Source: an uncultured Bacilli bacterium (GTDB lineage: Bacteria; Bacillota_I; Bacilli_A; RF39; UBA660). Taken from it: a stretch of 64,000 nucleotides of DNA. How positions within the stretch are numbered: the stretch's first letter is position 1; each line of letters opens with the position of its first letter. Below, one piece after another: positions 2,851 to 62,598 of the stretch. The stretch spans positions 163,103-227,102 of the forward strand of contig CALVQK010000001.1 of the NCBI GenBank assembly GCA_944358305.1, read 5' to 3'. The position numbers and the translations under genes were made by a program. The notes beneath the pieces are model-generated. The model was not told the origin of the DNA. It searched no databases and saw only the letters and a program-made list of their open reading frames with translations.

Positions 2851-2864
2851 GGGGGAAGTGAATC

Positions 2865-3872: not shown

Positions 3873-3876
3873 TTTT

Positions 3877-24493: not shown

Positions 24494-24503
24494 GAGTGAT
24501 AAT

Positions 24504-26162
24504 ATGGGTAAAATAAGAGGACTTTATCGTTTTAAAACTTCAGACATAAATGATCATGCTAAATTAGCATATTGTTATGTTGAAGAAAATGAGTATGGTA
24601 ACTTAGAATATCATTTTACAGAGGATTTATCAATAATAAGAAAAATCTTTGTAAGATATGCTGAGGATAACGGTTATACCAAAGCAGATTTAAATAATAT
24701 TCAAGATCATAAGCACTTTGATTTGAACTGTTCATCTCCTAAAAATGTTTTTGATAAAATAAGAGAAGCGAACAGCGATAAGAATTTATCTATTGAAGAT
24801 TTTGCTAGTAGTTTTGTTCATTCTACAGTTGATCCTCTTAATCTAAATCCTTCTGAATCTGCAGAAGCAGAAGAAGAGTTAGAATTAGATATAGATGATG
24901 CTGAGGACTTAGATGATGATTTTGATGATGAGGAAGATTTAGATGAAAAGGACAAATTCCCAACTCGTGTCCGCAAATTCTTTAGTAATAAATTAACTAC
25001 TTTGAAAAATAAATGGAATAGTTTAAATCCAAGAACAAAAGTTGGCTTTATTGGCGCTGGTATGGCTGCTTTAAGTGTTGCTATTGCTATCGGAGCAAGT
25101 GTAGCTGTTAATAAATTTGGTGGCCCAACCGCTACAAATAGTAGAGTCGCTTCTGTAACAGATGATAATGATAAAGATAAAAACAAAGATCAAAATGATA
25201 AAAAAGATGAACAAGAAACTAAAGATGAAGATCAAAAAGAGAAAGAAAATGAAGCTAGTAAACAAAATACAGATGGTTCTAGCCAAACATCTAATGATAA
25301 CTCTTACAGCCAAGCCTCATCTAATGGCAACTCTAATTCTGGCTCAGGTTCATCATCAAATGGTGGTGGTTCATCAAGTGGTGGAACTTCTGGAGGCGGA
25401 TCAACTGGTTCTACAACAACTCCAGGAAGTATAAATGAAGATGTTCCAGTTTTCCAAAACCCTGACGAGTCACTAGATAATTCTAATAATGGTGGTTCAT
25501 CTGATGGAGAGACAGAAGATCCTTATGAAAATGTTAATGAAGGAGAACAAGATACCAATATAGGAGAAGGTGAACAGCCTGATCAAGATGAAGATTATAG
25601 TGAAGAGATTGATGTTCCACCTTCAACTGAAGATAAAGATAATGTCGATAAAGATGATGTTGATTTCAACGATGAACTTACAGGAAATGAAGATGCTGTA
25701 GATGACGATGATCTAAGCTATGATATGGATGTACCATTAGATCAAGGTGATTCTGAAGATTATGAAGTAGTTACTCCAGCACCACTTCCAGATCCTAATG
25801 ATACAGCAGTAGCTGGAGATGGTGATTATAATACAACAGAAGATGAATTAAATAATGTAACAGAAGAAGAAGTTAATACTACAACACCTACTACACCAGA
25901 TCAAAGTCAAACAGAAGACTATAGCGAGGAAATAGATGTTGTTCCAGTAACTCAAGAATTAGTAGAACCAGAAGGACAATATGTAGATCAGGATGCGGAG
26001 TTAGCTGCAAGACAAGAAGCCAATGCTAATGCTGTAGAACAAGCTGTTAATGAAATGGCTGAAGGTAATGATGTTAGCTTAATATTTAATGATCAAACAG
26101 GTACCGTAAGTATCCAGCAAAATACAACTACTAACACACAAACAAATAGTATGACAAAATAG
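24504..26162 (+). CDS. hypothetical single-pass membrane protein with acidic and S/G/N/D-rich low-complexity regions
   Basis: A roughly 100-aa globular N-terminal domain, an acidic stretch, a TM (VGFIGAGMAALSVAIAIGASVAV) and a long D/E/S/G/N-rich exterior region. Confidence 0.4.
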   Translation: MGKIRGLYRFKTSDINDHAKLAYCYVEENEYGNLEYHFTEDLSIIRKIFVRYAEDNGYTKADLNNIQDHKHFDLNCSSPKNVFDKIREANSDKNLSIEDFASSFVHSTVDPLNLNPSESAEAEEELELDIDDAEDLDDDFDDEEDLDEKDKFPTRVRKFFSNKLTTLKNKWNSLNPRTKVGFIGAGMAALSVAIAIGASVAVNKFGGPTATNSRVASVTDDNDKDKNKDQNDKKDEQETKDEDQKEKENEASKQNTDGSSQTSNDNSYSQASSNGNSNSGSGSSSNGGGSSSGGTSGGGSTGSTTTPGSINEDVPVFQNPDESLDNSNNGGSSDGETEDPYENVNEGEQDTNIGEGEQPDQDEDYSEEIDVPPSTEDKDNVDKDDVDFNDELTGNEDAVDDDDLSYDMDVPLDQGDSEDYEVVTPAPLPDPNDTAVAGDGDYNTTEDELNNVTEEEVNTTTPTTPDQSQTEDYSEEIDVVPVTQELVEPEGQYVDQDAELAARQEANANAVEQAVNEMAEGNDVSLIFNDQTGTVSIQQNTTTNTQTNSMTK

Positions 26163-26219
26163 TTTTACTATTTGTTTTTTCTTTGGTATAATTTAAGTAA
26201 AGAATAGGAAGTGGTGTTT

Positions 26220-28124
26220 ATGAATTATAGTTTTGATTTACTAACAGAGCTTGATGATAATAGAAATGAAATAGAGGTCTTTATTGATTCTTCTAACACC
26301 GCTATAGATAGTGAAAGAATAACTGAACTTACAACTATAATTAACCAACTATTAGGGCATTTTAATCAACTTTTAGTTAGAGTACAAGATATTATCCCTA
26401 AAGAAGATATTGATAATAATATAAAATTAGCCAAAGAAATAGAAAATAAATTAAAAGAGATAGAAATAAAAAAACCAAAAGATAAAGTAGAATCACTAAT
26501 AGCAATATATAATAATTTAAGAAACCATTATGATAATTTAACTGCCAAAATATTAACTTACATAAAAACAAGTGATACTATTTCCTCTTATAACAAACTA
26601 GTAATAAAAGCTAATGAGAATATTGTTGCCCTAAATAACTTAGATCTTTCTAAAGATATAATAGATGAAATATCTTCTCTTTATAATGAATTAAAAAATA
26701 GTAATGATCTTTCTAAAATAAATAATTTTATCAATAAGACTAATGACATAATAAAAGAATATACTACTAGCGATTTAAATGAAAAAAAAGGAAAACCATC
26801 AGAACGTATTTTTTCTCTTTTCGCTAAAATAAACGACCAAATAATAGACTCATTATTTCTCCCTAAAGACAACTTAGTTTATGCTTCATATATTCTAGAA
26901 GATAAAAGTAAATATTATGCTATTATAAAAGAAGAAAAAGAAATAGCTATATTAGATCAAAGCTTTACTAATTTGCCAAATTTAGTATTAACTAAAGACA
27001 ATATAATAGATACCTGTAAAACTATTATTAAAAATGCAGGTATATATTATGATATAAATGAGTACATGCGTTATATTGAAAAAAGTTATAAAACTAAAAT
27101 GACTAAAGAAATAGATGAATTAGTGCTTAAATATAAAGTAAGATTAAAAGAATTAGAAAAAAACATTAATAGCCAATTATCTTTTATTGATGATATAGCA
27201 CTTATAGTTAATAAAATGCCTTGTAAGAAGTATCCTAATATTAAATATAATGATGTAAAAGTAGAAGAGTATTTCCCTAATTATGAAGAAGAACCTGATA
27301 GTAAAGCTAAAGAAATAAAACGTCTTATAATAGAAGTTTTATTAAATCCTAATATTAAAAGCGAGTTCGATACTAAAAGTATTTTAAAGACATTATATGA
27401 TAAAGATACAATTGCCTCTCTTCTTAAAAGTGATTATAAACCAAATAATACAATTCCTATAGTTAATACAGATAATAATATTAATATAGATACTGATTTA
27501 ACTAATCCTCTTAAAACTAATTCTGAAAAAATAAATACTTATCTAAATAATAGACTTGATGAGTTAGAGCTTCTTAAAAGTAGTCCTAAGATAAATGTTA
27601 CAATTACTAAATATGATGATGTTTTATATAAAGATATAAATACTATATTAGATCTTATAACAGCAGGTGTAATATGTGATAAAGTTTATAAAAAAGGGCA
27701 AGGAGACTATGCAATATTAGATTATTTAAAAACTGGCAATAATTTAAAGTTCACTTCAAAATATAAAGCTAGAGTCTTAGCCACTAGTATAAATAGAGAT
27801 AGTTATCTAAAACTATTATTAGAAAATATTCTAAAAAAATATATTTATATAACTTCATCTAATGGTAAAGACATTATAATAGATTATTTAACACCTCTTT
27901 TAACTAAAGAGAAAATATTACCTAAAGATATACTAAACGATTTACTTAATAATGAAGAAATGTTAAAAAACTGCATCAAACACTTTGATTATGATTTTCT
28001 TAATCCTTTATCAGATAAATCTCTAAAAGTAGAAAAAATAGGTAAAGAAAGTAATGATATAAATATCAGTAAAGCAAATGATATGTTAGTAGAATTAAAA
28101 AAAATAGATAACATACTTAATTAA
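26220..28124 (+). CDS. hypothetical protein (K/N/I-rich, predicted helical)
   Basis: Long ORF with RBS AGGAAG. No recognisable family. Confidence 0.4.
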   Translation: MNYSFDLLTELDDNRNEIEVFIDSSNTAIDSERITELTTIINQLLGHFNQLLVRVQDIIPKEDIDNNIKLAKEIENKLKEIEIKKPKDKVESLIAIYNNLRNHYDNLTAKILTYIKTSDTISSYNKLVIKANENIVALNNLDLSKDIIDEISSLYNELKNSNDLSKINNFINKTNDIIKEYTTSDLNEKKGKPSERIFSLFAKINDQIIDSLFLPKDNLVYASYILEDKSKYYAIIKEEKEIAILDQSFTNLPNLVLTKDNIIDTCKTIIKNAGIYYDINEYMRYIEKSYKTKMTKEIDELVLKYKVRLKELEKNINSQLSFIDDIALIVNKMPCKKYPNIKYNDVKVEEYFPNYEEEPDSKAKEIKRLIIEVLLNPNIKSEFDTKSILKTLYDKDTIASLLKSDYKPNNTIPIVNTDNNINIDTDLTNPLKTNSEKINTYLNNRLDELELLKSSPKINVTITKYDDVLYKDINTILDLITAGVICDKVYKKGQGDYAILDYLKTGNNLKFTSKYKARVLATSINRDSYLKLLLENILKKYIYITSSNGKDIIIDYLTPLLTKEKILPKDILNDLLNNEEMLKNCIKHFDYDFLNPLSDKSLKVEKIGKESNDINISKANDMLVELKKIDNILN

Positions 28125-31502: not shown

Positions 31503-32807
31503 ATGATTAGTAAACCAAAAGGAACAGTAGATTTAACTGATAAAAAAGCAAGATGTTGGAAGTATGTCGAAGAAGTTATTGATTCTGTTATGGAAAAATA
31601 TAATTATAACTATATTAGAACTCCTATCTTTGAAGCTAGTGAATTGTTTCATAGAGGAATAGGGGATTCTACTGATATAGTAACAAAAGAAACATATGAT
31701 TTTAAAGATAGAGGAGATAGAAGTATTACTTTAAGACCCGAAGGAACAGCAGGAGTAGTTAGAAGTTATATTGAAAATAAAATGTATGGCAAAAATAACT
31801 TACCTGTTAAAGTTTATTATAATGGAACAATGTACCGTTATGAAAGACCACAGAAGGGAAGACTTAGAGAACTTAGTCAATATGGAGTAGAAGTCTTAGG
31901 TAGCACTGATCCTATGATGGATGCTGAAGTTATTTCTCTAGCTTATAACATCAATAAAATGTTAGGCTTAACTGATACAGTAGTACACATTAATAGTCTA
32001 GGAGATAAAGAGTCCCGTGATAAATATAGAGAAGCTTTAAAAAGTTATTTTAAGCCTCATTTAGATGATTTATGTGACGATTGTAAAGAAAGATTTGATA
32101 AAAACCCTTTAAGAATTATAGATTGTAAAATAGATAGTAATAAAGACTATTTTAAAGATGCTCCTAATATTTTAGACTATCTAAATAAAGAGAGTAAAGA
32201 GCACTTTGAAAAGGTGTGTGAATACCTTGATATTTTAGAAGTTAAATATGTAATAGATCCAAAAATAGTAAGAGGTCTAGATTATTATAACCATACTGTC
32301 TTTGAACTTATGACCGAAGAAAGTAATCTTGCTTTAGGTGGTGGTGGCCGTTATGATAACTTAGTAAGTACTCTAGATGGCCCCGAAACATCATGTGTAG
32401 GTTATGCCGTTGGCCTAGATAGATTAGTAGATCTTTTAATGGAAAAAGAGTTAACTACTAATGTAAGAGATTATATAGATGCTTTTATTATGTATGTTAA
32501 TGAAGATGAAAAGAAAAATGCTATTTATCTTGCTAATGAACTTAGAATGTCAGGTTTTGTTGTAGAAACAGAATATACTAAAAAAAGCTTAAAGAGTCAG
32601 TTTAAAAGAGCAGATTACTTTAATAGTAAATATTTAATACTACTAAATAGTGATGACTTGAATGAAGGGTTAGTTACTATTAAAAATAATAAAACTAAAG
32701 AAGAAGAAAAGATTATGATGGAATATATTATTTATTATTTCGATGAACATATAAGTGATGATAATTTACCTATTGACTATCATAATCATGATGAAGAAGA
32801 GGTGTAG
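31503..32807 (+). CDS. hisS: histidine--tRNA ligase
   Basis: Class II aaRS motifs (RPEGTA..R, GGGRYD) and a C-terminal anticodon-binding domain. Confidence 0.85.
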   Translation: MISKPKGTVDLTDKKARCWKYVEEVIDSVMEKYNYNYIRTPIFEASELFHRGIGDSTDIVTKETYDFKDRGDRSITLRPEGTAGVVRSYIENKMYGKNNLPVKVYYNGTMYRYERPQKGRLRELSQYGVEVLGSTDPMMDAEVISLAYNINKMLGLTDTVVHINSLGDKESRDKYREALKSYFKPHLDDLCDDCKERFDKNPLRIIDCKIDSNKDYFKDAPNILDYLNKESKEHFEKVCEYLDILEVKYVIDPKIVRGLDYYNHTVFELMTEESNLALGGGGRYDNLVSTLDGPETSCVGYAVGLDRLVDLLMEKELTTNVRDYIDAFIMYVNEDEKKNAIYLANELRMSGFVVETEYTKKSLKSQFKRADYFNSKYLILLNSDDLNEGLVTIKNNKTKEEEKIMMEYIIYYFDEHISDDNLPIDYHNHDEEEV

Positions 32808-32811
32808 TTTA

Positions 32812-34128
32812 GTGAATAAAATATTTTTTAAAGACTTAGAAAACTATTTTGATAAAGAAATAGAACTAAGTGGTTTCGTTGAAAATATTAGAAATATAAA
32901 ATGGGTACAGTTTTTAGTATTAAGAGACTCTACAGACAAAGTTCAAGTAACTATTGAAAAAAGCGAAGAGAAAAATAAGGAAATGGTAGAATTAGTTAAT
33001 AACTTAACTCTTGAATCTACTGTTAAAGTAACAGGAACTTTAAAGAAAAATGAAAATGTTAGATTAAGAGGAATGGAATTTATTCCTACAAAAATAGAAG
33101 TAACTAGTACAAGTGATGCTGAACTTCCTATCAATATTCATGATAAAGAAGCTCAACTATTAGATCAAAGATTAGATTATAGATGGTTAGACTTAAGAAA
33201 TGAATATAATTTTAATATCTTTAAAATTCAAAGTGATATGGTCAAATATATGCGTGAATTTATGTATTCTAAAGACTTTACAGAAATACATACTCCTAAG
33301 TTAATTGGAGCAGCATCAGAAAGTGGTTCAGAGGTATTTGAAGTAAAATACTTTGATCGTAAAGCTTATCTTGCTCAATCTCCTCAATTTTATAAACAAA
33401 TGGCTATCGCTAGTGGTTATGACAAAGTCTTTGAAGTAGCACCTGTCTTTCGTGCCGAGAATTCTAATACTTCTCGTCATACTACTGAGTTTACTGGTTT
33501 TGATGTAGAATTTGCCTATATTGATTCATATGAAGATGTTATGGACTTAGAAGAAGAATTATTAACTTATACTTTAAAGAAATTAAATGAAAAATATGGA
33601 GAACTAGCTAAAAGTTTGTATGATAAAGAAATCGTAGTACCTAAAGGAAAATTCCCAAGAGTAAAACTTGCAGATCTTTATGAAGAGTTAGAAAAAAGAT
33701 ATGACTATAAAGTAGATGAAAGTGAAAAAAATGACTTAACTACTGAAGCAGAGCGTTTAAGTTATCGTTATGCTATGGATGAATTTAATCAAGAATTTAT
33801 CTTTGTTACAGACTTTCCTAAAGAAAAAAGAGCTTTTTACCACATGCGTAAAAATGATATACCTGAAGGTTATGATTTAATCTATCGCGGAGTAGAAATA
33901 ACTACTGGTGCAGAACGTGAACACAGATATGATGTTTTAGTTAAACAAGCTAAAGAAAAGGGACTAGATAAAGATGTAGAATTCTACTTAGAATTTTTCA
34001 AATATGGTTGTCCTCCTCACGGTGGCTTTGGCTTAGGTATTGATAGATTAACCATGTTAGTATTAGGATTACCTAGTGTTAAAGAATCCATGTTAATATT
34101 TAGAGGACCTAATAGATTAAACCCATAA
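32812..34128 (+). CDS. aspS: aspartate--tRNA ligase, short archaeal/type-2-like form (possibly non-discriminating); AsnRS not fully excluded
   Basis: N-terminal OB fold and class II core FRAENSNTSRHTTEF...GGFGLGIDRL. GTG start 32812 with RBS GAGGTG. The hisS-aspS synteny favours AspRS. Confidence 0.6.
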   Translation: MNKIFFKDLENYFDKEIELSGFVENIRNIKWVQFLVLRDSTDKVQVTIEKSEEKNKEMVELVNNLTLESTVKVTGTLKKNENVRLRGMEFIPTKIEVTSTSDAELPINIHDKEAQLLDQRLDYRWLDLRNEYNFNIFKIQSDMVKYMREFMYSKDFTEIHTPKLIGAASESGSEVFEVKYFDRKAYLAQSPQFYKQMAIASGYDKVFEVAPVFRAENSNTSRHTTEFTGFDVEFAYIDSYEDVMDLEEELLTYTLKKLNEKYGELAKSLYDKEIVVPKGKFPRVKLADLYEELEKRYDYKVDESEKNDLTTEAERLSYRYAMDEFNQEFIFVTDFPKEKRAFYHMRKNDIPEGYDLIYRGVEITTGAEREHRYDVLVKQAKEKGLDKDVEFYLEFFKYGCPPHGGFGLGIDRLTMLVLGLPSVKESMLIFRGPNRLNP

Positions 34129-40439: not shown

Positions 40440-42641
40440 ATGAGAGGTAGAAAAAAAGAAAAAAAGGGATTTACGTTAGTAGAGCTTTTAGCAACGATCA
40501 TAATATTAGGCCTATTAACAGCAATCGCTTATATAAGTGTAAGAAGCATTTTAGATAGAGGTAATGACAGTTATTATGTTTCTCAAGAAGATATGCTTGT
40601 TTTAGCAGGAAGAGAATATTATGCTGATCATAGAAGCGAATTACCTAAAGATGTAGGAGATACATCTAATGTAACATTAGAAACATTAATTGAACAAAAA
40701 TATATAGATCCTATTAAAGATAGAAATGAAAATGATTGTGATTTTGTTAATAGTAGTGTGACAGTCCAAAAAATAACAGAGACTGATTATCAATACTATG
40801 GTATTTTAACTTGTAGTGGTGACAATTATCAAACAGAAGAGGATGAAGCAAATCCAGTGATAAAATTTAATCCAAACAAAAAGTCTTCACAAAATTCTAT
40901 AAACGTTACTATGCAAGTTACAGATAATGTAGAAGTTGCCAGTGTTAGATATGTAATAACTAAAGATGGTGAAGCATATCAAGATAGTGGTTATCAAGTA
41001 TACAATGGAGATATTAATATAAGATTAACAGAATTAGGTTTATATGAAATAACAGGATATGCTATTGATACAAGTGGTAATATGACATCTAGAAGATCTG
41101 GTCAATACTCAATTTATAAAGGAGTAGATTGTAGTAATGTTAAATTTACTAGTAGTGATACCATTGCAAACGAAAATATAACTGTTAAAGTAAATGTTCC
41201 AGATAATACTTATAGATGGGAATTAAGTGAAAGAGTAGATGGTGGCTCATATCAATTAATGGAGTCTTATATAGGAAGCGAAGATCAAACTATAGAATTA
41301 TCTGATGAAGGAACTCATCAATTGAGAGCTGTAGTATATGATCAGTATGGTAACACCTGTACATCTACAAGTTCTTCATATACAATTGATAAAACTCCTC
41401 CAACTTTATCAGTAGTTTTAAAGAAAAAGTCAAGTAAAACAGACTTAGGAGAAACAGCTAATATTTCTTCCTTAGCAGATTATACAAATAATACTTGGTA
41501 TAGTGGTTATGTTGTCTTAAGAGGAAGTTGCTCTGACAATAGAGGAAGTTGTACGGTTTCTTATCAAGTTACAGGAGCTTCAACAAACACAGATGGTTAT
41601 GTAAATAAAACTACTCGTAATATTAACGCTGAAGGAACATCAACAGTAACATATAGAGTAACAGATACAGCAGGAAATGTTACAACAAGATCATATACTA
41701 TAAAACTAGATAGAACAGCTCCTTCGTGTCCAACCCTTACATCATCTATCGCTCAAAAGACTTGGACTAATCAAAATGTAAGCTTTACTTTTGACTTTGA
41801 TAATGATACCGACAAGTGGCAATGGTATACAGGTTCTGCTGGTAAATCTTGGACAGATTGGGGAGAAAAACCAATTAGCACTACATCAGTATCTATAAGT
41901 GGAGAAGGTAAAAGAACAATTAAAGTAGGTCTATATGACGAAGCAGGTAATTATAGGGAGTGCTTTGATGGTAACCAATATTATATTGATAAGACCAAAC
42001 CAGTATTAACATACTCTGTAACTCAATCATCAGATAGTTCAAAAGGAGTTTCAGGAAACAGTAAAGATGGTAATGTCTCAAAAAACTTCACTTCTCTTGG
42101 CAACGCTATAAGAAAATTCAGTGCTACAGATAGTGCAAGTGGCATTTCAACTTATCAGTACAACTCTGGCAGTGGTTGGAAGACGGAAACAAAGTATTCT
42201 AGCTATACTGTAAAATCAAATAATAACGCTAGCTACAGAGTTAGGGACAAAGCCGGTAATTATTCTAATACAGTAACTTTAAATATAACTATTCAGGATC
42301 CAGATCCAGACAAAAACTTCAAAGTAACTTGTAAACAAACTTGCCATGGGAATTGTAGTTTAAATGGTTGGAATAACGATACTATCTGGCGTTGGGATAT
42401 TTCAGGTGCAGGTAGTGGTGTTTCTAAAGCTAAACTTGATTATTCAACCGAATGGGTAGATCATTACTGGACAGCTGAAATGACTAAAACTGGTAAGCAA
42501 GTAGTAAGTAAGAGTGGTGGATATGCAGTATTTAATTTACCAACTAAGTTTGAATTTACTAGATCTTATGCCAAACTAAAAATAGTAGGAGATGTTTGGA
42601 CTGTAAATGGTAAGAAAAAAACGTGTACAATACAAGAATAA
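40440..42641 (+). CDS. large type IV pilin-like (prepilin-type N-terminal cleavage/methylation) protein with Ig-like repeats
   Basis: Class III signal peptide KKG|FTLVELLATIIILGLLTAIAY (G-F-T-L-x-E consensus). About 690 aa of repeated beta-rich (Ig-like) modules follow. Confidence 0.65.
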   Translation: MRGRKKEKKGFTLVELLATIIILGLLTAIAYISVRSILDRGNDSYYVSQEDMLVLAGREYYADHRSELPKDVGDTSNVTLETLIEQKYIDPIKDRNENDCDFVNSSVTVQKITETDYQYYGILTCSGDNYQTEEDEANPVIKFNPNKKSSQNSINVTMQVTDNVEVASVRYVITKDGEAYQDSGYQVYNGDINIRLTELGLYEITGYAIDTSGNMTSRRSGQYSIYKGVDCSNVKFTSSDTIANENITVKVNVPDNTYRWELSERVDGGSYQLMESYIGSEDQTIELSDEGTHQLRAVVYDQYGNTCTSTSSSYTIDKTPPTLSVVLKKKSSKTDLGETANISSLADYTNNTWYSGYVVLRGSCSDNRGSCTVSYQVTGASTNTDGYVNKTTRNINAEGTSTVTYRVTDTAGNVTTRSYTIKLDRTAPSCPTLTSSIAQKTWTNQNVSFTFDFDNDTDKWQWYTGSAGKSWTDWGEKPISTTSVSISGEGKRTIKVGLYDEAGNYRECFDGNQYYIDKTKPVLTYSVTQSSDSSKGVSGNSKDGNVSKNFTSLGNAIRKFSATDSASGISTYQYNSGSGWKTETKYSSYTVKSNNNASYRVRDKAGNYSNTVTLNITIQDPDPDKNFKVTCKQTCHGNCSLNGWNNDTIWRWDISGAGSGVSKAKLDYSTEWVDHYWTAEMTKTGKQVVSKSGGYAVFNLPTKFEFTRSYAKLKIVGDVWTVNGKKKTCTIQE

Positions 42642-44729: not shown

Positions 44730-46334
44730 ATGAGATTTAATATCAAAGAATTTATGAAAGCAGATATATCTAAGTTTTATATTTTAATAGCAGGAACTAT
44801 TTGTCTATTAGTATTAGGAGGTTATTTTTCTTACGCTATGTTTACAGTATCAAAAGAACAAGATAATGCTGTAAGTATTATAACTGGTAATTTAGAATAT
44901 GATTTACAAGTAGATGGAGAAGAAGGTAATACTTTAACAGTACCTGCTAATTCAACGAATGACTTTATTGTTACTTTAAGTAATCCCAATAATAGAGAAG
45001 CAAGATTTAATTTCTATTATGAAGATACATTACCTGATGATGTAACAGTTGGTTATGTCCCTGCTAATGGTGTAAATGCTGTTGCAGAAGCCAAAGGTAT
45101 AAACTTATCATCTGATGGTTCAAGTGGTTCTAGTAATACCTATAGAATCCAAGTGAAAAATGATACAGATAGTGAAATAAAAGTTACCTTAGGAGCAGAA
45201 GTAGGATTAGATTATAATGATTTAACATTGCCAGAAAATACTCAAACAGTTGATGAAATAGAACTTTCTCCTGCTGCCAAGACAATTCTTTCTGCTAATG
45301 CGATACAGGATGATTCTAAAAATATGTTTAACTATGTAAACGATAATGCTTTATATGCTTCTATTAATGATGATAGTACAAACTCTACTCCTAATTCTGA
45401 GTCTACAGTAAGCGGGTTATATGCTATTGAAGATGATAATGGTATCAGTTATTATTTTAGGGGTAATGTAAATAATAATAATGTTCAGTTTGGCCAATAT
45501 GATAATGATTACTATATTTACCAAAGTGGTACTAATTATTATCAGAGTGAAGAAAGTTGCATAGAAGCTGGAAACAGCAACTGTACGAGTGTAAAATTAG
45601 CATCTAAGGGCGATAAAATGTACTGGAAGATAGTAAGAATAAATGGTGATGGAAGTTTAAGATTAATCTATAACGGAATAAGTCCGACTCCTAATGGTAG
45701 TGATTTAGCTAATTCTTATGCAATAGGTGTTGCTCCATACAATTTAACTAGTAATGATCCAAAATATACTGGCTATACCTACGATAATGGAACAAATAGT
45801 TTTATTAAAAGAGAAATAGATACATGGTATAATAATACATTAGGAATTAATACTAATTATGATAGTAAAGTTTTAAGCAATATATTTTGTAGTGATAGTA
45901 GTGGTTACAAGTTAGGAACAGATTATGGTCTAGATGATACTAACTATAATGTCTTTGCTAGTTTTAATAGATTAAGACAAGATTTAAGTAATTATTCTAA
46001 ACCAAATGCTCCAACATTAAAATGTCAAGGGACAGAAGAAACTTATGGTGGATCATATAATTTAAAAGCTGCTTTAATAACAATAGATGAACTAAATATA
46101 GCAGGACTTGGAAGCGAAGCGACTACTTATTTAAGTCAAGATAGTTCCCCACTATATTATTGGACTATGACACCTGCTGCTTTTAATAACAACAATGCAT
46201 TCACTTGGCTTGACAGTTTAGATAATGTTAATGTTACTAATAATTACGCTATACGTCCTGTTATTAATTTATCATTAGAAAATGCTTTTGCAAGTGGCAG
46301 TGGTACTACTGATGATCCTTATATTGTATCATAG
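44730..46334 (+). CDS. N-terminally anchored surface protein, paralogue with shared N-terminal module and one C-terminal RPxxNL..GxG..DPY module
   Basis: GGYFSYAMFTVSKEQDNAVSIITGNLEYDLQVDGEEGNTLTVP...ARFNFYYED aligns to the 9701/60656 N-terminal region. C-terminus AIRPVINLSLENAFASGSGTTDDPYIVS. Confidence 0.55.
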   Translation: MRFNIKEFMKADISKFYILIAGTICLLVLGGYFSYAMFTVSKEQDNAVSIITGNLEYDLQVDGEEGNTLTVPANSTNDFIVTLSNPNNREARFNFYYEDTLPDDVTVGYVPANGVNAVAEAKGINLSSDGSSGSSNTYRIQVKNDTDSEIKVTLGAEVGLDYNDLTLPENTQTVDEIELSPAAKTILSANAIQDDSKNMFNYVNDNALYASINDDSTNSTPNSESTVSGLYAIEDDNGISYYFRGNVNNNNVQFGQYDNDYYIYQSGTNYYQSEESCIEAGNSNCTSVKLASKGDKMYWKIVRINGDGSLRLIYNGISPTPNGSDLANSYAIGVAPYNLTSNDPKYTGYTYDNGTNSFIKREIDTWYNNTLGINTNYDSKVLSNIFCSDSSGYKLGTDYGLDDTNYNVFASFNRLRQDLSNYSKPNAPTLKCQGTEETYGGSYNLKAALITIDELNIAGLGSEATTYLSQDSSPLYYWTMTPAAFNNNNAFTWLDSLDNVNVTNNYAIRPVINLSLENAFASGSGTTDDPYIVS

Positions 46335-54534: not shown

Positions 54535-55050
54535 CTACTTCTTTTTATCTTGTAAGTCTATTTTATAAACTTTTACGTTTTCTACATGATCTAGAGAATA
54601 TAATAAATTATCTTTAGGGACACTTCCTTCATATATTAAATGCCCATTATTATTAAGCGCCACCTTTTGTGAATAAATATTATCCGGAACAGTAGCAATT
54701 ACAAGACCATTTTCTAGGGCATACTTATTATTTTTAAGAGCTTCTTTTAAAAGCTTTAAAGCCATAGTAGCATATCCTTGATTCCTAAATTTCTCTTCAA
54801 TGTAGTAACTTACATTACCTCCAAAAAATAAATCATCATTACTAGAACTATGAAAACTAATAGATCCAATTATTTCTAATGATTCATTAAGGCTGATTTT
54901 TAAAGAGATAAAAGATGAAGTTAAAAGATCATCACCGAAAGATCTAGATGCTAAACTAATCTTATCATTTGCTACTATCTCATTAAACCCATCAGCACTT
55001 TTAGGATTAAAGTCAAGTCCACTATTAAAATAATCATAGAATTTAAACAT
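54535..55050 (-). CDS. GNAT-family N-acetyltransferase
   Basis: Acetyl-CoA-binding motif RNQGYATMALKLLKEA. Start probably at Met 18 of the tracked ORF (RBS AAGGAAGAGAAG), which avoids overlap with the upstream gene. Confidence 0.6.
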   Translation of the reverse strand: MFKFYDYFNSGLDFNPKSADGFNEIVANDKISLASRSFGDDLLTSSFISLKISLNESLEIIGSISFHSSSNDDLFFGGNVSYYIEEKFRNQGYATMALKLLKEALKNNKYALENGLVIATVPDNIYSQKVALNNNGHLIYEGSVPKDNLLYSLDHVENVKVYKIDLQDKKK

Positions 55051-57514
55051 TCTGAGCTTCTCTTCCTTTACAAAGAACCTTTTTATCTCTAAAATACTCA
55101 TCCTTTGAACACTCTAAACAACTTTTTGTTAAATTAATAACAGTTTCAATAGGCACATTCATAATATTAGCAACTTCTTCACTAGAGAAAAACTTACAAT
55201 CAAAATATCCAAGCCTCAAAGCTAATATTTTTTTCTCTAAATCACTACATGTACTCACATAATTTTTAAAAACAGATTGTTCTAAAGCCTTTATTCCTTT
55301 AAGAATTTTTCCTTTACTATCTTTTTCTTTAATATTTTCTAAATCCTTTTCGTTGATTTTAACACTATCTGTTTTTCTAAAATTATCCCTAATCATAAAC
55401 TCTTCTAAAAAATTAGGCCATAATGTGATATTTAAATCATTATCTTCATCAACACTATTAATAATTTTAGTTAAAGAATTTCTTTCATACTTTCTTGCAT
55501 CATCATAACTAATAGAAAGCTTTGAAGAAATTTCTCTACGAGTTTGATAAACAAGATGATTATCTTTAACTAAACAAATCTCCTGTAAATAATTAATTTC
55601 ATTATTAGAAAAAGTAATTTTAATACTAGCTTTTTCTAAATCAATATAATTACTTAAATCAGGGAAAATACTTAAAGCTTCTCGTTTTAAATTTTCATTT
55701 GTCTTTATTTTTTGAAACAACGTATAACGTAGTACTAAATAATCTAATAGACTATCAACATTTAATTTTTCTCTCATTTCTTCACTAGTTAAAGGGCTAT
55801 TCTTATGTCTATTTAGCAATTTCAAAAACTTTATTTCTAAATTAGATAACATCTCACACTCTTTTATATCATAACTAATTTTACTCTTTAGTTCCATTAC
55901 TTGCTCATACAAATTAGTATCAGCTGATATAACAGTAAATAGTTCCTTTTCATCGGCACTTTTATAATCTTCATATCCTTCATTAGTAGCAATAATCCTA
56001 CTAACTAGTTGTTTATGTCTGTGAATAAAATCTTTTAATTCTCTTTTTTTAATAGATGTATTATTCTTACTTTTAACAGGTAATAAAAGAGTAGAAGGAT
56101 CACTACAATACTTTAATGCTTCTTCTAAAATTTCCTTATCGCTAAGAATCTTATTGAACAAAGCTGTTTTTCTTATTGAATAACCTCTTTTACTTTTATA
56201 GTCAAGTCTTGAGGCCATTTCTTCATTCGATAGAGGATCACCCTTAGTTTCTTCTAATAACATTAATAATTTTATTTCTTTGTCAGTTAATAACTTTTCA
56301 TTATTTTGCTCTTTAATTTCAATTTCCCTTTTACTAACATCAAGGTTTTTATAATATGATAAAGCTTCCTCTAACAAAATAGGATTTTTTCTTAATTTAC
56401 TAAATAAATTACTTTTAAAAACTAAAAATGCTTTTTTACTGCCATAATTACCCAACTTTGCAAGTTTATCAGCATTAATATCTGTACTATCATGATATTT
56501 GTTTAATAAAATAAGCAATCTAATTTCTTTCTTTGTTAAGTACCCTCTATTCTTTAACACTTCATAATCAAAGTCAGGAATAAATTTTTTAGCTATTTTA
56601 ACTAACTCATTATTTCTAGTAAGCTTTTTAAATATTTTAATCCTTGCATCAATATAATGAAAAACATCAGCATATCCTTCTATATTAATATCATCCTTAG
56701 TAACTGCTTTGTCTTTAAATCTCCATAAAAATTTTAAACATTTCAACTCTTCATAGGCAAGTTTACTAACAGGTTCTTTGCGTTCATAACTTTTTCCTTT
56801 AGTTAACTTAAATTTAAGTTTCTCTTTTCTTTTTTGCAAATTATTCTCTAGATTAGGAAACTCTTCTAATAATTTTTTAAGATTATTACCTTTTTGAAGT
56901 TTATTAAAGGCTCTAATTAAATCTTCTTTAATAATGTCAGGAGCTTTTTTATATTTAGTAGATAATTGATTGATAGATAAAGGTTTCTCTACCGCACCAC
57001 AGAATTCTTTAATAAGCTCTAATTGATAAACTGACATAGTATTATTTTTTTCTTCAAAATATTTATCTCGCTTTTTAGAAATATTTCTATACCCTGGAAA
57101 AATCCTTTCAACTTCATTTTTATCTTTCTTAAAAGCTGTGCTAATAACATCACTAACAGTATTAACACCATAGTGAAGCATTTCAGCAATTTCCATTTTA
57201 GAAAGATATTTTCCATCTTGCATATTAAAATAAAGTGAAAGTACTTTATATTCAAAACTTGTAAATATTCCCGTATCAATTTCTTCTTTTTCTTTAATAG
57301 ATCTTTTTATCACTGCTTTAAGATGGAATAAAAAAGGTAACTTAACTTCTTCTGTACATGTATCAATCGCTTGTTTTAAATAATCATCTACCATCTCTTC
57401 ATCAAAGTCGACCTTAAGGGCCTCTAAATATTTCCTAATTTCATTTTTAAAATAATTAGTTCTTTCGCTATCGCCATTTTTTAATTTTTTTACTACTTCT
57501 AGATTTTGATTCAT
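55043..57514 (-). CDS. large protein built from at least five tandem sigma-70 region-4-like helix-turn-helix repeats
   Basis: Repeating units of about 60-65 aa with the pattern L(S/T)..E(I/L).LL.LL.......L(S/T).EE(M/I)A..L......(V/I)......(A/L)..K(I/L), e.g. YLSKMEIAEMLHYGVNTVSDVISTAFKK and LTDKEIKLLMLLEETKGDPLSNEEMASRLDY...IRKTALFNKI. Confidence 0.5.
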   Translation of the reverse strand: MNQNLEVVKKLKNGDSERTNYFKNEIRKYLEALKVDFDEEMVDDYLKQAIDTCTEEVKLPFLFHLKAVIKRSIKEKEEIDTGIFTSFEYKVLSLYFNMQDGKYLSKMEIAEMLHYGVNTVSDVISTAFKKDKNEVERIFPGYRNISKKRDKYFEEKNNTMSVYQLELIKEFCGAVEKPLSINQLSTKYKKAPDIIKEDLIRAFNKLQKGNNLKKLLEEFPNLENNLQKRKEKLKFKLTKGKSYERKEPVSKLAYEELKCLKFLWRFKDKAVTKDDINIEGYADVFHYIDARIKIFKKLTRNNELVKIAKKFIPDFDYEVLKNRGYLTKKEIRLLILLNKYHDSTDINADKLAKLGNYGSKKAFLVFKSNLFSKLRKNPILLEEALSYYKNLDVSKREIEIKEQNNEKLLTDKEIKLLMLLEETKGDPLSNEEMASRLDYKSKRGYSIRKTALFNKILSDKEILEEALKYCSDPSTLLLPVKSKNNTSIKKRELKDFIHRHKQLVSRIIATNEGYEDYKSADEKELFTVISADTNLYEQVMELKSKISYDIKECEMLSNLEIKFLKLLNRHKNSPLTSEEMREKLNVDSLLDYLVLRYTLFQKIKTNENLKREALSIFPDLSNYIDLEKASIKITFSNNEINYLQEICLVKDNHLVYQTRREISSKLSISYDDARKYERNSLTKIINSVDEDNDLNITLWPNFLEEFMIRDNFRKTDSVKINEKDLENIKEKDSKGKILKGIKALEQSVFKNYVSTCSDLEKKILALRLGYFDCKFFSSEEVANIMNVPIETVINLTKSCLECSKDEYFRDKKVLCKGREAQNV

Positions 57515-57596: not shown

Positions 57597-57947
57597 ATGA
57601 ATATAAAAATTGAAAGAATTAATCACATGATTAGAGAAGAAATAAGTAAAATTTTAATGTTGGAAGTTAAAGATGAAAATATAAAATTCGTAACTGTTAC
57701 TGATTGTGATACATCAAATGATTTAAGTTATTGCAAAGTATATGTAACAGTCTTAGATAGTGAAAAAAAAGAGGAAACTTTAAAAGCTTTAAATAATGCT
57801 AGTAGTTTTATAAGAGGAGAGCTTGCTAAGAGAATTGAGATAAGAAATATTCCTGAACTTAAATTTTTCTATGATGAGTCTATTTCTTATGGAGAAAAGA
57901 TTGATAAGATTATAGATAAAATAAATGAGGAAGATAATGAACTATAA
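57597..57947 (+). CDS. rbfA: ribosome-binding factor A
   Basis: N-terminus ...RINHMIREEISKIL... and KH-like fold length. Conserved position after infB. Confidence 0.85.
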   Translation: MNIKIERINHMIREEISKILMLEVKDENIKFVTVTDCDTSNDLSYCKVYVTVLDSEKKEETLKALNNASSFIRGELAKRIEIRNIPELKFFYDESISYGEKIDKIIDKINEEDNEL

Positions 57948-59346
57948 GATTATCGTTAATAAAGAAAAATTATATAACAAAAAAGATTTTTCAAATATTG
58001 AATTCAAAAAAATAGTTAGTACCCTAAATGAAGAATATTTACTTGAAAAAAGAACTTTAAAAGCCTATCTTGATTTAAAAAGAGATTTAGAAAAAGAAAA
58101 TATTTTTATAGATATTGCAAGTGGTTACAGAAGTGTAGAAGAACAAATTGATCTAATAGAAGAGTTTACTAACACTTATGGTAGTGATTATACAGAAAAG
58201 TATGTCGCTAAGCCTAAAACCAGTGAACATCATACAGGCCTTGCTTTTGATGTTGATCTAGTTATTGATAATAAAGTTGTTTATGATAATAATATATTAT
58301 TTGAACAAGTTGAAACTTGGGAAAAGATAATTAGTATTTTACCTAACTATGGACTAATACTAAGATACCCCAAAGGAAAAGAAAAAATCACAGGTTATAA
58401 TTATGAACCATGGCATTATCGTTATGTTGGTAAAAGTACTGCTAAAATAATAATGGAAAATAACTTAACTTTAGAAGAGTATGATAAATTATATAATAAA
58501 TCAGGAATTCTTTTAGTTAACAAGCCTAAAGGCATTACTTCAAGAGATGTCGTTAATAAAATAGAAAGAATATTTGATACTAAAAAAGTAGGACATAACG
58601 GCACTCTTGATCCTTTAGCAGAAGGATTACTTGTAATTACTATTAATAGGTCGACTAAAGTAAATGAATTATTAACAAGTACCGAAAAAGAGTATATTGC
58701 TGAAGTTAAAATAGGAATAGAAACAGATACTTTAGATTTAGAAGGCAAAGTAGAAAAAACTAGTGATAAAAAGATAACTAAAGATATGTTAGATAATCTT
58801 TTTACAAACCTTAAAAGAGAATATCTTCAAGAAGTTCCTAAATATTCAGCAATTAAAGTTAGTGGTAAAAAATTATATGAATATGCTAGGAATAATGAGA
58901 TGGTAGAGCTACCAAAAAGAAAAGTTATTATAAAAGAACTAGAATTATTAGATTATAAAGAAGATAGTTTTAAATTTAGATGTCTTGTATCTAAAGGAAC
59001 ATACATTAGAAGCCTTATTAAAGATATGGGAGATTTTTTAGATATTCCTTGTACTATGAAAAGTCTTCTAAGAACAAAGCAAGGAAAGTTTTCCCTAAAA
59101 GATGCTTTAGATTTAGAAGAAGTTAATATAAATAGTAACTTAATTAGTATTAGTAATGCTTTAGATATAGATAAAAAGGAAATAGAAGCTAGAGATTATA
59201 AAAAAATAATAAATGGCGCTTCTATAAATAACACATACAATATTAAAAACGAAGTATTATTTATTAAAAACAATAAAGAGATAGCCATTTATAAAAATAT
59301 TAATAGTAAATTAATTTGTTATAAAATGATAAATGAGACTAATTAA
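57925..59346 (+). CDS. truB: in-frame fusion: VanY-like M15 D-Ala-D-Ala carboxypeptidase domain + tRNA pseudouridine(55) synthase TruB
   Basis: The N-terminal ~180 aa carry SGYRSVEEQ, SEHHTGLAFDVD and EPWHYRYVG...LTLEEY (VanY/M15B signatures). They continue without a stop into TruB (GILLVNKPKGITSRDVV...VGHNGTLDPLAEGLL...KVSGKKLYEYAR). Confidence 0.65.
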   Translation: MRKIMNYKIIVNKEKLYNKKDFSNIEFKKIVSTLNEEYLLEKRTLKAYLDLKRDLEKENIFIDIASGYRSVEEQIDLIEEFTNTYGSDYTEKYVAKPKTSEHHTGLAFDVDLVIDNKVVYDNNILFEQVETWEKIISILPNYGLILRYPKGKEKITGYNYEPWHYRYVGKSTAKIIMENNLTLEEYDKLYNKSGILLVNKPKGITSRDVVNKIERIFDTKKVGHNGTLDPLAEGLLVITINRSTKVNELLTSTEKEYIAEVKIGIETDTLDLEGKVEKTSDKKITKDMLDNLFTNLKREYLQEVPKYSAIKVSGKKLYEYARNNEMVELPKRKVIIKELELLDYKEDSFKFRCLVSKGTYIRSLIKDMGDFLDIPCTMKSLLRTKQGKFSLKDALDLEEVNINSNLISISNALDIDKKEIEARDYKKIINGASINNTYNIKNEVLFIKNNKEIAIYKNINSKLICYKMINETN

Positions 59347-59968
59347 GTCTCATTTTAATATCCTCACTTATTATATCAGTACAAAGTTTTATAAATGGTT
59401 TAATATTATCTATATCAAAAGAATAAGCAAAGCTCTTCTTACTATTTTCAATAATTATTCCCATCTTATCAACTATTATCTGTAACTTATCAATTGGTAT
59501 CTCATCAAAATCAATGTTAGGAGTCCTTAACTCTTCATAAAACAATGATAAGTCCAAATTATATTCATCAATAAGTAAAACATTTAAATTAGTATAATCA
59601 TTATAAATTAGTCTTGTTATCTCCTCTGCACTACATTTAAGCGTTTCTCCAGATAAAAGTTTTATATAGTCATTACTATTAGATATTTCCCTAATAAAAT
59701 ATTTAAACCAAAGATAATCTGTAAAAAGATGAATATAATATCCCATTATGAAAGGACTATCTAATTTCTTTTCATATTTCTTTAAAAAAGCTTCTAAATT
59801 AGGTAGGTCACTATCTTTATTAGTTAAAAAATGAGACTTAACTTTAGTTTCTCCTAAATGTTTACTAATATCAGGAGCAATTGTTCCTAAAAATAGTTCC
59901 TTTTCATTCATATTTAAATTTTTATTAATTTCTTTAGCGACTGCTAAATGTATAACTGCACTTGCCAT
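59339..59968 (-). CDS. hypothetical protein, possibly zinc-dependent phospholipase C-family-like metal hydrolase
   Basis: VIHLAVAKE...APD..H...YYIHLFTDYLW resembles the H/PD/H..HL.TD pattern of that family. Weak. Confidence 0.3.
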   Translation of the reverse strand: MASAVIHLAVAKEINKNLNMNEKELFLGTIAPDISKHLGETKVKSHFLTNKDSDLPNLEAFLKKYEKKLDSPFIMGYYIHLFTDYLWFKYFIREISNSNDYIKLLSGETLKCSAEEITRLIYNDYTNLNVLLIDEYNLDLSLFYEELRTPNIDFDEIPIDKLQIIVDKMGIIIENSKKSFAYSFDIDNIKPFIKLCTDIISEDIKMRLN

Positions 59969-60462: not shown

Positions 60463-62598
60463 GATTCAGGAAACCATTTTAGGATAATGGAATAATAGAT
60501 AATAATGAATGTAAAATAACAATAAGACTAAAAGTTATTGTTATTTTTTATTTGAACAATAGGACTCTATGTGTTAATATTATATTAGAAAAGGTAGTAA
60601 CAAATAAGTAGAAATACAAAAGTTAGTACATACTAAAGATTAGGAGTGGAGTCTAATGAAAAGATTATTACTAGAAACAAGCTTCAGTAAAATTTATATG
60701 ATCTCTGTAATAGTAATAAGCTTACTTATAATAGGAGGCTATTTTTCATATGCTATGTTTACAGTAAATAGGGAGCAGAGTAATGCAATAAGTATTATTA
60801 CAGGGAACTTAACTTATAAACTAGAAGTAGATGAAAGTGAAGGTAATACTTTAACAGTTCCACAAAACAGTAGTAGAGAATTTATAGTAACACTATCTAA
60901 TCCTAATAATAGAAAAGCAAGATTTAACTTTTATTATTTAAATGATTTACCTAATAATGTAGAAGCAGGCTATATTGTAGATTGTGAAACAAATACTTTA
61001 CCAGAATCTGTTGGCGTAAACTTAGAAACAAGTGGCACAGCAGGATCTAGTAATATATATAAAATAATGGTAGAGAATAATTCTAGTAATGATGTAACAA
61101 TAGAGTTAGGAGTAAATGTAGGGCTTGACTATAATGATTTAGAATTACCAAGTAATGGTCATATATTTAAAGAATATGAGAATGTTCCAAATGCTCCAGA
61201 GTTAGATGAAGGAATGATACCAGTAAGTTATGATGGATCTAACTGGGTAAAAGCAGAGTCTAATAATACAGATAATAGTTGGTATAACTATGATGAACAG
61301 ATGTGGGCAAATGCTGTCACCGTAACAGAAGAAACAAGAGATATATATAAGAGTGCTGATGTAGGAACAACAATATCAATGGATGATATAGAGACAATGT
61401 GGGTATGGATACCAAGATATAGTTACTCTATAGGAAGCGAAGATGGAACAAATTACTATGGAAAGAAAGGATGCTATTTAGAAACAGATCCTACTCAAGC
61501 TTTACCAGGAGAAATAGATGTAAGATTTGTAGATACTAATATAAAAGATAGAGGAACAGCCAAGTATGTAACAACAAGTGGAGCAAGAGAGTATTATACC
61601 CCAGATGCCTTTACATTTGGTAGTGTTGAGCTTAGTGGAATATGGGTAGGAAAGTTTGAGACAAGTAGTTCTAATCCAAGTGTAACAGCAGGAGGAGGCA
61701 ATACAACAGAGTTAGATGCCATGATCAAACCAAATGTGGCAAGTTGGAGAGATATAAATGTAAGTAATGCCTTTAATGTAAGTTTAAAGATGAATAATAA
61801 TGGAAATAGATATGGAATAGAGAGTACAACAGATACTCATATGATGAAGAATAGTGAATGGGCTACAGTTGCCTATTTATCACAATCAAAATATGGAAAG
61901 TTAGGTAATACTAACTTTACTGGGGCGGATAAAGAGATATATCAAAATAAATCAGATCTTTTTATAACAGGATGCAGTTATGGCAGTCCAAGTAACGGGA
62001 ATACAGATTATGGTTGCCAATATCAATATAATATAGAAATAAATGGAACAGGGGCAAGTACAACAGGAAATATCTATGGAATTTATGATATGAGTGGTGG
62101 TGCTCATGAATATACAATGGCAAATTATAATGATTTAATTGCAGATAGTGGTTTTTCTTCTATGCCTGACTCAAAATATTATGATAAATATACAACTGAT
62201 AACATGTTAACAGCTTGTAGTGGAAATGAATGTTTGAGCCATGCTTTATACGAGACTAATAATTGGTATAGTGATTATCGTGGTTTAGTAAGAGAACAAT
62301 ACCCATGGCAATTACGTGGAGGAATTTATAATTATAGTATTAAAGCGGGAATTTTTAATTTTGAAATTAGTAATAGTGCTGTTGGGGGTAATACTATAAA
62401 TGATGCTTTCCGTTTAGTAGCTACAACAAGTTAAGTGAGTAAAAAAGAAAAAATTAGTATTGTATAAGATATTTATTCATAATAAAAGGAAATGAGTTTT
62501 ATTCATTTCCTTTTGTCATTATTCTTAATTTATCATAACTTTCTAATCCTTTAGAGCTTCCATCTGGAAGCAGATAAATATAATAAACTTTAAGTCTT
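60463..62598. repeat. segmental duplication, copy B (inserted between rpsO and pnp)
   Basis: Collinear with 9507-11655. Includes a 34-nt relic of the divIB 3' end and a truncated relic of the convergent small gene. Confidence 0.9.
60656..62434 (+). CDS. N-terminally anchored surface protein with C-terminal FGE-sulfatase-like domain, paralogue B (duplicate of 9701-11470)
   Basis: First ~300 aa nearly identical to paralogue A. The C-terminal FGE-like half is roughly 75% identical, including WEY -> HEY within the GIYDMSGGA(W/H)EY motif. Confidence 0.6.
   Translation: MKRLLLETSFSKIYMISVIVISLLIIGGYFSYAMFTVNREQSNAISIITGNLTYKLEVDESEGNTLTVPQNSSREFIVTLSNPNNRKARFNFYYLNDLPNNVEAGYIVDCETNTLPESVGVNLETSGTAGSSNIYKIMVENNSSNDVTIELGVNVGLDYNDLELPSNGHIFKEYENVPNAPELDEGMIPVSYDGSNWVKAESNNTDNSWYNYDEQMWANAVTVTEETRDIYKSADVGTTISMDDIETMWVWIPRYSYSIGSEDGTNYYGKKGCYLETDPTQALPGEIDVRFVDTNIKDRGTAKYVTTSGAREYYTPDAFTFGSVELSGIWVGKFETSSSNPSVTAGGGNTTELDAMIKPNVASWRDINVSNAFNVSLKMNNNGNRYGIESTTDTHMMKNSEWATVAYLSQSKYGKLGNTNFTGADKEIYQNKSDLFITGCSYGSPSNGNTDYGCQYQYNIEINGTGASTTGNIYGIYDMSGGAHEYTMANYNDLIADSGFSSMPDSKYYDKYTTDNMLTACSGNECLSHALYETNNWYSDYRGLVREQYPWQLRGGIYNYSIKAGIFNFEISNSAVGGNTINDAFRLVATTS

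Follow-up and report, generated by a model that had tools for sequence, protein, structure and literature searches.

An M15B-type zinc-peptidase domain fused in frame to the tRNA pseudouridine synthase TruB in uncultured gut Bacilli

One reading frame for a peptidase domain and TruB

We analysed a 64,000-nucleotide stretch from an uncultured Bacilli bacterium (GenBank assembly GCA_944358305.1, contig CALVQK010000001.1, positions 163,103 to 227,102 of the forward strand; hereafter the window), in which a single unbroken open reading frame (ORF) of 473 codons at 57925..59346 (+) encodes a VanY/M15B-type peptidase domain together with the tRNA pseudouridine synthase TruB. An initial annotation, made from the sequence alone, had described one in-frame ORF after rbfA that combines a VanY-like M15 peptidase with TruB, and the uninterrupted frame and the Pfam and NCBIfam matches confirm this description. 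Every motif that it quoted (SGYRS, SEHHTGLAFD, EPWH and the LTLEEYDKLYNK/SGILLVNKPKGITS junction at 58500/58501) was recovered, as listed below. Residues are numbered from the Met at ATG 57937 (469 residues) unless the 473-residue numbering is stated.

57597..57947 (+): rbfA, ribosome-binding factor A, directly upstream of the fusion gene (Pfam RBFA, E = 5e-36)
57927..57931 (+): Shine-Dalgarno-like GAGGA, read from the sequence, 5 nucleotides before ATG 57937
57937..59346 (+): VanY(M15B)-TruB fusion gene, 469 residues plus stop (ORF, Pfam and NCBIfam domains, homolog lengths, AlphaFold2)
57937..58500 (+): M15B (VanY/VanXY/LdcB-type) zinc-peptidase domain, residues 1-188 (PF02557, Foldseek, sequence matches in the PDB)
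58120..58134 (+): SGYRS motif; Arg65 is the predicted substrate-binding Arg (SpLdcB Arg120), at least 90% conserved in 73 homologs
58222..58251 (+): SEHHTGLAFD motif; His98 and Asp105 are predicted zinc ligands (H-x6-D) and Ser96 a substrate contact, invariant in 73 homologs
58318..58320 (+): Trp128 codon TGG, which is TAG in a near-identical strain (L081), truncating the peptidase half; sole difference in 1.9 kb
58405..58416 (+): EPWH motif; predicted catalytic Glu157 (at least 90% conserved) and third zinc ligand His160 (W159 and H160 invariant)
58498..58503 (+): fusion junction Lys188/Ser189, from alignment with the stand-alone peptidase of locus L024 and the unfused TruB of L019 and L021
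58501..59343 (+): TruB tRNA pseudouridine-55 synthase, catalytic and C-terminal PUA-like domain, residues 189-469 (281 residues; TIGR00431, Foldseek)
58609..58611 (+): catalytic Asp225 of TruB in GHNGTLDP, invariant in all alignments, decayed-fusion relatives included
59331..59355 (strand not applicable): palindromic hairpin over the stop codon, a terminator-like match

The true start is likely ATG 57937 (MNYKIIV...), giving 469 residues, because GAGGA lies 5 nucleotides upstream, homologs measure 465-469 residues and the final 11 nucleotides of rbfA overlap the start of the fusion gene; the alternative upstream ATG at 57925 would yield 473 residues. No signal peptide or membrane segment was found by hydropathy (maximum 19-residue Kyte-Doolittle values of 0.07 in the first 60 residues and 0.87 in the whole protein), in agreement with the initial annotation, and the fusion protein is predicted to be cytoplasmic. 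Within codons 150-215, the sole in-frame ATG, GTG or TTG is Met173 (Met177 in the 473-residue numbering), which has no Shine-Dalgarno sequence upstream and is Met in just 33% of 73 homologs, while promoter-like matches in the region occur at chance level (28 found versus 24.3 expected). An internal promoter or start was rejected on these grounds. The initial annotation had likewise seen no plausible internal start; it was right that the internal Met lacks a ribosome-binding site, but this Met lies 16 codons before the TruB part and not 18.

As judged from profile, sequence and structure matches, the first 188 residues make up an entire M15B zinc-peptidase domain and belong to the signal-less type of about 185-200 residues whose best-studied member is VanXYc. 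PF02557 (VanY) matches residues 39-170 with an E-value of 1.5e-30 and 106.2 bits against a cutoff of 25, spanning profile positions 3-132 of 132, and sequence matches in the PDB place VanXYg and LdcB nearly level (E = 1e-23 to 1e-25). Foldseek aligned residues 1-188 of the predicted structure with VanXYc (4oak/4mur) at template modelling (TM) scores of 0.81-0.83 over the full 190 residues and 34-35% identity. Residue roles were transferred by alignment to PDB entries and to the LdcB structure paper (PMC4087270), in which H153, D160 and H207 of SpLdcB are the equivalents of the zinc ligands H98, D105 and H160, E204 of the catalytic E157, and R120 and S151 of the contacts R65 and S96. Across 73 fused homologs spanning 50-98% identity, S96, E97, H98, D105, W159, H160 and R162 are invariant, and no fewer than 90% retain R65, Q70 and E157. 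Pairwise identity averages 57% in the VanY part and 66% in the TruB core, and the ratio of nonsynonymous to synonymous substitution rates (dN/dS) against nine relatives is 0.10-0.30 in the peptidase half and 0.14-0.37 in the TruB half. Collectively, these comparisons show purifying selection on both predicted active sites in the lineage of the window.

The best structural match of the N-terminal domain, VanXYc/VanXYg (4MUR, 4OAK, 4F78, 4MUQ), shares with it the M15B fold, the zinc site H-x6-D...H, the Glu of ExxH, the Arg of SxYR, the lack of a signal peptide and the (here predicted) cytoplasmic location; unlike VanXY, the domain falls below the NF000380 cutoff and is fused to TruB. No van operon gene (vanR/S, D-Ala-D-Ser or D-Ala-D-Lac ligase, racemase; D-Ala being D-alanine) was found among the window ORFs scanned, the neighbours being rbfA, a 209-residue gene and rpsO. 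LdcB (DacB/YodJ; 4OX3, 4OX5, 4MPH) has the same zinc ligands, Glu, Arg and Ser and a sequence similarity to the domain about equal to that of VanXY, but it works on tetrapeptides of the wall, either after export or as a membrane-anchored protein, whereas our domain has neither signal nor anchor and scores below the NF041194 cutoff. VanY-A and VanY-B carry an N-terminal membrane anchor, in contrast to the domain, which has no membrane segment and reaches 72 and 62 bits with their NCBIfam models (NF000472/NF000473) against cutoffs of 425 and 400. In Firmicutes, signal-less M15B proteins of about 185-200 residues also stand alone (L024 6010-6564; P0274-P0300). Over their full length they are 43-54% identical to the domain, with which they share both the N-terminal M-D/N-Y-x-I-L-V-N-K and the C-terminal ...LTLEEYxKxYNK. 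Each is encoded by a gene of its own in an unrelated neighbourhood (after pcrA, or beside S41 peptidase and sortase genes), and no experimentally characterised member was found. With nearly tied PDB scores and both NCBIfam cutoffs missed, neither VanXY-type nor LdcB-type specificity was assigned; the beta4-alpha5 loop has been described as distinguishing the two types (PMC4087270). Given the missed cutoffs, the lack of a van operon and the lack of an export signal, we call the domain a VanXY-like cytoplasmic M15B peptidase rather than VanXY, VanY or LdcB.

From the conservation of its catalytic residues we infer that the domain is still active in the lineage of the window, most likely in removing the C-terminal D-Ala from D-Ala-D-Ala, UDP-MurNAc-pentapeptide or a recycled stem peptide in the cytoplasm. 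The peptidoglycan genes uppP/bacA, murG, murB and ftsQ/divIB lie at 2-9.5 kb of the window, and since an organism with uppP, murG, murB and divIB builds peptidoglycan, D-Ala-terminated cytoplasmic substrates exist.

The C-terminal part agrees with TruB in all sequence and fold criteria tested, and these 281 residues are taken on that basis to be the organism's housekeeping TruB, predicted to isomerise U55 of the tRNA T-loop via Asp225. TruB_N (PF01509) matches residues 215-361 (E = 1.1e-48), and TIGR00431 gives 213.8 bits against a cutoff of 151.45 over residues 193-399 of the 473-residue numbering (profile 2-209 of 210). By Foldseek, residues ~189-469 match 2ab4_A of T. maritima at a TM score of 0.85 over 299 columns and 1k8w_A of E. 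coli at 0.81, and K196, H220, D225, Y253 and R358 are invariant in the 73 fused homologs. In gene order, the fusion takes the place of the orthologous truB, between rbfA and rpsO. With canonical TruB (1K8W, 2AB4/1R3E) it shares the Asp of GTLDP, the Tyr of KEY, the Arg of YIRS, the PUA-like domain and the rbfA-truB-rpsO position; whereas canonical bacterial TruB has about 280-315 residues and a short free N-terminus, residue 2 is here joined to a 188-residue peptidase, and ribF is not next.

AlphaFold2, run with the family alignment, predicts a rigid two-domain body, with a predicted local distance difference test score (pLDDT) of 93.5 and a predicted TM score (pTM) of 0.86. Confidence shows no dip at the junction, across which pLDDT stays at ~94-97. 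Among the Foldseek structure matches there was no solved chain spanning both halves.

Junction, distribution and origin of the fusion

At the junction, the last residue of a peptidase of stand-alone type (...YNK) leads directly into TruB from its residue 2 onward (SGILLVNKP), unfused TruB beginning MNGIIVVNK. A stand-alone, signal-less homolog of 184 residues from Clostridium sp. CAG:914 (L024) runs from MDYHILVNK... to ...LTLEEYKKIYNK and its stop codon, ending exactly at the junction, and in the window protein ...LTLEEYDKLYNK runs straight into SGILLVNKPKGITS, which aligns with residues 2 onward of the unfused TruB MNGIIVVNKENGYTS of sister genomes. Because the end of the stand-alone peptidase and residue 2 of TruB meet at this point, the fusion is end-to-start with zero linker.

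In three sister genomes (L018, L019 and L021), rbfA is followed by a DHH-family gene and then by a 279-residue truB, which indicates that the ancestral TruB was unfused and that the gene content between rbfA and truB varies. Their DHH/DHHA1-type phosphoesterase (NrnA-like, ~318 residues) occupies the same slot as the peptidase, with its last ~26 nucleotides overlapping the start of truB. The window is AT-rich (28% GC), and the peptidase half (24.8% GC) and the TruB half (24.7%) are equal in composition, so that there is no sign of recent acquisition. No independent VanY-TruB fusion was found elsewhere: among the top-scoring matches of an exhaustive search of 1.84 billion representatives, all proteins with both VanY and TruB belong to this one group.

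In a search of 5.8 billion clustered proteins (90%-identity clusters), both Pfam domains were present together in more than 100 clusters of 50-98% identity and ~465-470 residues (ENA, NCBI, JGI, Logan, MGnify), and a second search, from a distant relative, returned many more (hundreds overall), some with hundreds of members and on contigs of up to 387 kb. Among GTDB contigs with one genome per species, 17 loci have VanY and TruB matches that abut in the same frame directly after rbfA; their hosts are gut metagenome-assembled genomes labelled 'uncultured Bacilli/Tenericutes' and Candidatus Onthousia. In related loci, infB and a variable insert on the minus strand are followed by rbfA and the fusion, then in some cases by the convergent 209-residue gene, and by rpsO; rbfA precedes the fusion in every related locus that reaches far enough upstream, and one relative has the textbook order nusA-ylxR-infB-rbfA-fusion.

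The initial annotation had raised the concern of a sequencing frameshift, which is dispelled by the recurrence of the same junction in the >100 clusters and the 17 loci, and had called for a comparison with related genomes; within the clade none has two separate genes. That adjacent vanY-like and truB genes were merged through a missed stop codon or frameshift can hardly be credited. A few database entries do split the ORF (P0083 in L081; P0086 with P0390 in L088/L089), but these cases trace to a G-to-A nonsense single-nucleotide polymorphism (SNP), an A6-to-A7 homopolymer indel and contig ends, a spacer between the two parts or a start codon for TruB is seen in no member, and hundreds of assemblies made independently by several pipelines and from several hosts carry the identical in-frame junction. 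L081, an 8.2-kb contig at 3.5x coverage, is the same as the window over 1.9 kb save G-to-A at 58319 (L081 position 3867), and the resulting TAG reflects an error in the reads or else a natural null allele, with which TruB would have to be made by reinitiation. In the long-read contigs L088 and L089 (89 and 449 kb; 2619-4020), an A7 run breaks the ORF, and ...IYEKIIEMLPNYG... would be regained with A6; the run is the same in two assemblies and may reflect an indel error of long-read sequencing or a site prone to slippage. The split call of P0270/L084 is a contig end. We accordingly rejected a true two-gene state for all of these loci. Taken across assemblies, the sequence comparisons show the fusion to be real, conserved and linker-less.

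Decayed relatives and surrounding genes

The initial annotation did not include a decay series in sister lineages, which alters the reading of the fusion. Related TruBs of 395-447 residues carry fused N-terminal domains of 121-166 residues that Pfam recognises partly (P0122) or not at all, and alignment identifies these extensions as eroded versions of the same peptidase domain. The SGYRS...Q helices are deleted in most eroded forms, SEH-x6-D is mutated (e.g. LEY...H, SEY...K, IDY...N, FEY...K) and ExxH is lost. In P0412 (548 member sequences), P0439 and P0122, the zinc triad is kept and the substrate Arg segment is absent. TruB residues D225, Y253 and R358 are intact in all 28 of 28 related fusions whose peptidase residues have been lost, in differing patterns.

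On a neighbour-joining tree of TruB only, whose deep nodes are unresolved, two shallow nodes that unite intact and decayed forms are usable (98-99% bootstrap). These pair decayed with different intact forms, {P0121, P0128, P0134, P0131} at 99% and {P0115, P0118, P0122} at 98%, and as two separate supported nodes they indicate that decay occurred at least twice independently. At matched TruB divergence, identity of the N-terminal part is 0.34-0.47 among remnants versus 0.49-0.63 among intact domains, the remnants thus changing at a higher rate. The remnants stay in frame and retain E37, L47, G139, I141, R162, Y163, E180 and Y182. A model of the decayed P0123, which occurs on independent contigs of 55-64 kb in the truB-rpsO-pnp position, predicts with high confidence that the protein folds and that its remnant is held rigidly (pLDDT 93.9, pTM 0.85). 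Collectively, these alignments show that peptidase chemistry disappeared more than once among the relatives, TruB being spared each time, and that the domain has never been deleted.

Other N-terminal partners of TruB occur in related organisms, namely an Imp-YgjV membrane domain (P0127, 447 residues) and a HAD-like hydrolase (P0237, 412 residues), and P0154 and P0131 are TruBs with unrecognised N-terminal extensions. Such arrangements suggest that truB of these AT-rich genomes fuses repeatedly with whichever gene lies upstream.

On the 3' side of the fusion gene lies the convergent 209-residue gene (59339-59968, -), which overlaps the fusion stop by 8 nucleotides and has a sub-threshold Zn_dep_PLPC match; rpsO follows, and ribF is absent at the locus, as the initial annotation had pointed out. 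The convergent gene is found in some related loci, and elsewhere rpsO stands directly after the fusion. The hairpin at 59331..59355 is probably a bidirectional terminator between the two convergent genes. On the other side, an 823-residue protein (55043-57514, -) and a GNAT-like 188-residue gene (54535-55101, -) lie between infB and rbfA and break the canonical operon; the former has only weak Sigma70_r4 and Trans_reg_C matches and looks repetitive and rich in helix-turn-helix motifs. In related genomes, the infB-rbfA insert is highly divergent (27-41% identity) or of different size.

Elsewhere in the window, large ORFs with no or marginal Pfam matches (DUF6273; an N_methyl pilin-like leader with Big domains) lie at 60656-62434 (+), 9701-11470, 12006-13394, 19646-21499, 23465-28124, 40440-42641 and 44730-46334, and may form a lineage-specific surface protein family. 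The first of these encodes a 592-residue protein with an N-terminal membrane segment, and L019 has an upstream 549-residue protein of similar general appearance. An aspartyl/asparaginyl-tRNA synthetase ORF with a GTG start (32755-34128, +) overlaps the end of hisS by ~50 nucleotides, its real start probably lying further downstream. In Candidatus Fimihabitans (L033 5479-7700), two tandem membrane-anchored VanY-family genes (314 and 409 residues) carry long N-terminal repeat-like extensions and are unrelated to truB.

Readings of the fusion and what it means

We favour, as the probable explanation, a lineage-inherited gene fusion that yields one cytoplasmic bifunctional protein, in which TruB and a VanXY-like peptidase would carry out independent chemistries with the N-terminal domain locked to TruB. 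A stand-alone peptidase gene would have come to lie between rbfA and truB, in the slot that holds the DHH-family gene in sister genomes; loss of its stop codon and of the spacer would then have allowed read-through of the adjacent genes, joining its last residue to residue 2 of TruB. Translation of TruB would now hang on the start site of the peptidase gene, and the peptidase fold would pack rigidly against TruB. This dependence on the upstream start, together with the rigid packing, would explain why lineages without peptidase chemistry keep a shrunken, folded, dead remnant. The repeated decay with intact TruB argues against obligatory coupling of the two catalytic activities, and a structural or regulatory role would be compatible with a domain that no such lineage has deleted.

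Several observations weigh against this account. The N-terminal domain misses the NCBIfam equivalog cutoffs for VanXY (131.2 versus 250 bits) and LdcB (93.8 versus 275), the alignment behind the P0123 model held intact relatives and so biases it toward the fold, the fusion may be cleaved post-translationally, and a second, unfused truB may lie outside the 64-kb window, within which none was found. Monophyly of the fusion on the TruB tree has only 8% bootstrap support; we therefore dropped this tree as proof of a single origin, which rests instead on the shared junction and the shared N-terminus.

A different reading holds that the N-terminal domain is already a pseudo-enzyme in the lineage of the window and serves TruB as a structural or solubility module. 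The missed equivalog cutoffs, the rigid predicted attachment, which suggests a structural role, and the sister lineages that keep the fold after catalytic death all speak for it, yet we consider it unlikely, since the three zinc ligands and the adjacent Ser are invariant and the Glu and Arg/Gln are at least 90% conserved in the 73 sequences, and the low dN/dS, with an N-terminal part better conserved than remnants at matched divergence, is the pattern of a selected active site. Quite unlikely, in our estimate, is a functional coupling in which the domain, by sensing or processing a ligand that ends in D-Ala, modulates TruB, be it tRNA binding and chaperoning or the output of the ribosome-biogenesis operon, or in which tRNA binding by TruB steers the peptidase to a tRNA-linked substrate. 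Such coupling would suit the predicted rigid, linker-less junction, the retention of the domain over long evolutionary times even when decayed, and the place of the gene within a nusA-infB-rbfA-truB-rpsO translation operon; however, catalytic and ligand residues have been lost repeatedly with TruB unchanged, which argues that TruB has no need of the peptidase chemistry, no known biochemistry connects the two activities, and the unrelated partners in P0127 and P0237 suggest opportunistic fusion with the upstream gene. Were the domains functionally coupled, the interest of the fusion would be considerably higher.

We regard it as very improbable that the ORF gives rise to two proteins, with free TruB released by internal initiation or proteolysis. 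Gene callers can begin a 297-residue TruB at Met177 of the 473-residue numbering (P0083), and a genuine L081 nonsense allele would force the strain to reinitiate for TruB, but the poorly conserved Met173/177 without a Shine-Dalgarno sequence is the sole in-frame start in codons 150-215, and the confidently modelled junction offers no flexible linker to cleave. It is similarly doubtful, to about the degree of functional coupling, that the peptidase-fold domain is an integral TruB module needed for folding, tRNA binding or chaperoning, which, where the active site is intact, may couple TruB to the level of D-Ala-terminated precursors. If true, this would explain a domain that has been killed catalytically several times yet never removed, and it would be the first single-polypeptide link between peptidoglycan-precursor status and tRNA and ribosome maturation.

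The initial annotation had stated that the arrangement is not known. This holds for the literature, in that our full-text searches found no published description of a VanY-TruB fusion, but the protein is already present in NCBI and UniProt, where members are named just 'tRNA pseudouridine(55) synthase TruB' (HIR58629.1, A0A9D1J2Z9, MBP3841015.1). The fusion is a new domain architecture made of two known enzymes, with no new mechanism demonstrated. It offers a clean natural example of a gene-fusion ratchet, in which the upstream enzyme may lose its chemistry (at least two times independently) but not be excised, and a series that leads from an apparently active enzyme to a folded pseudo-enzyme carried on an essential-pathway protein. 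It also points to a large, uncharacterised family of signal-less M15B proteins of ~190 residues in Firmicutes, putative cytoplasmic D-Ala trimmers outside vancomycin-resistance operons. The second domain escapes annotation pipelines, decayed versions of it altogether, and a putative cell-wall-precursor peptidase is therefore lacking from metabolic reconstructions of these abundant gut Bacilli.

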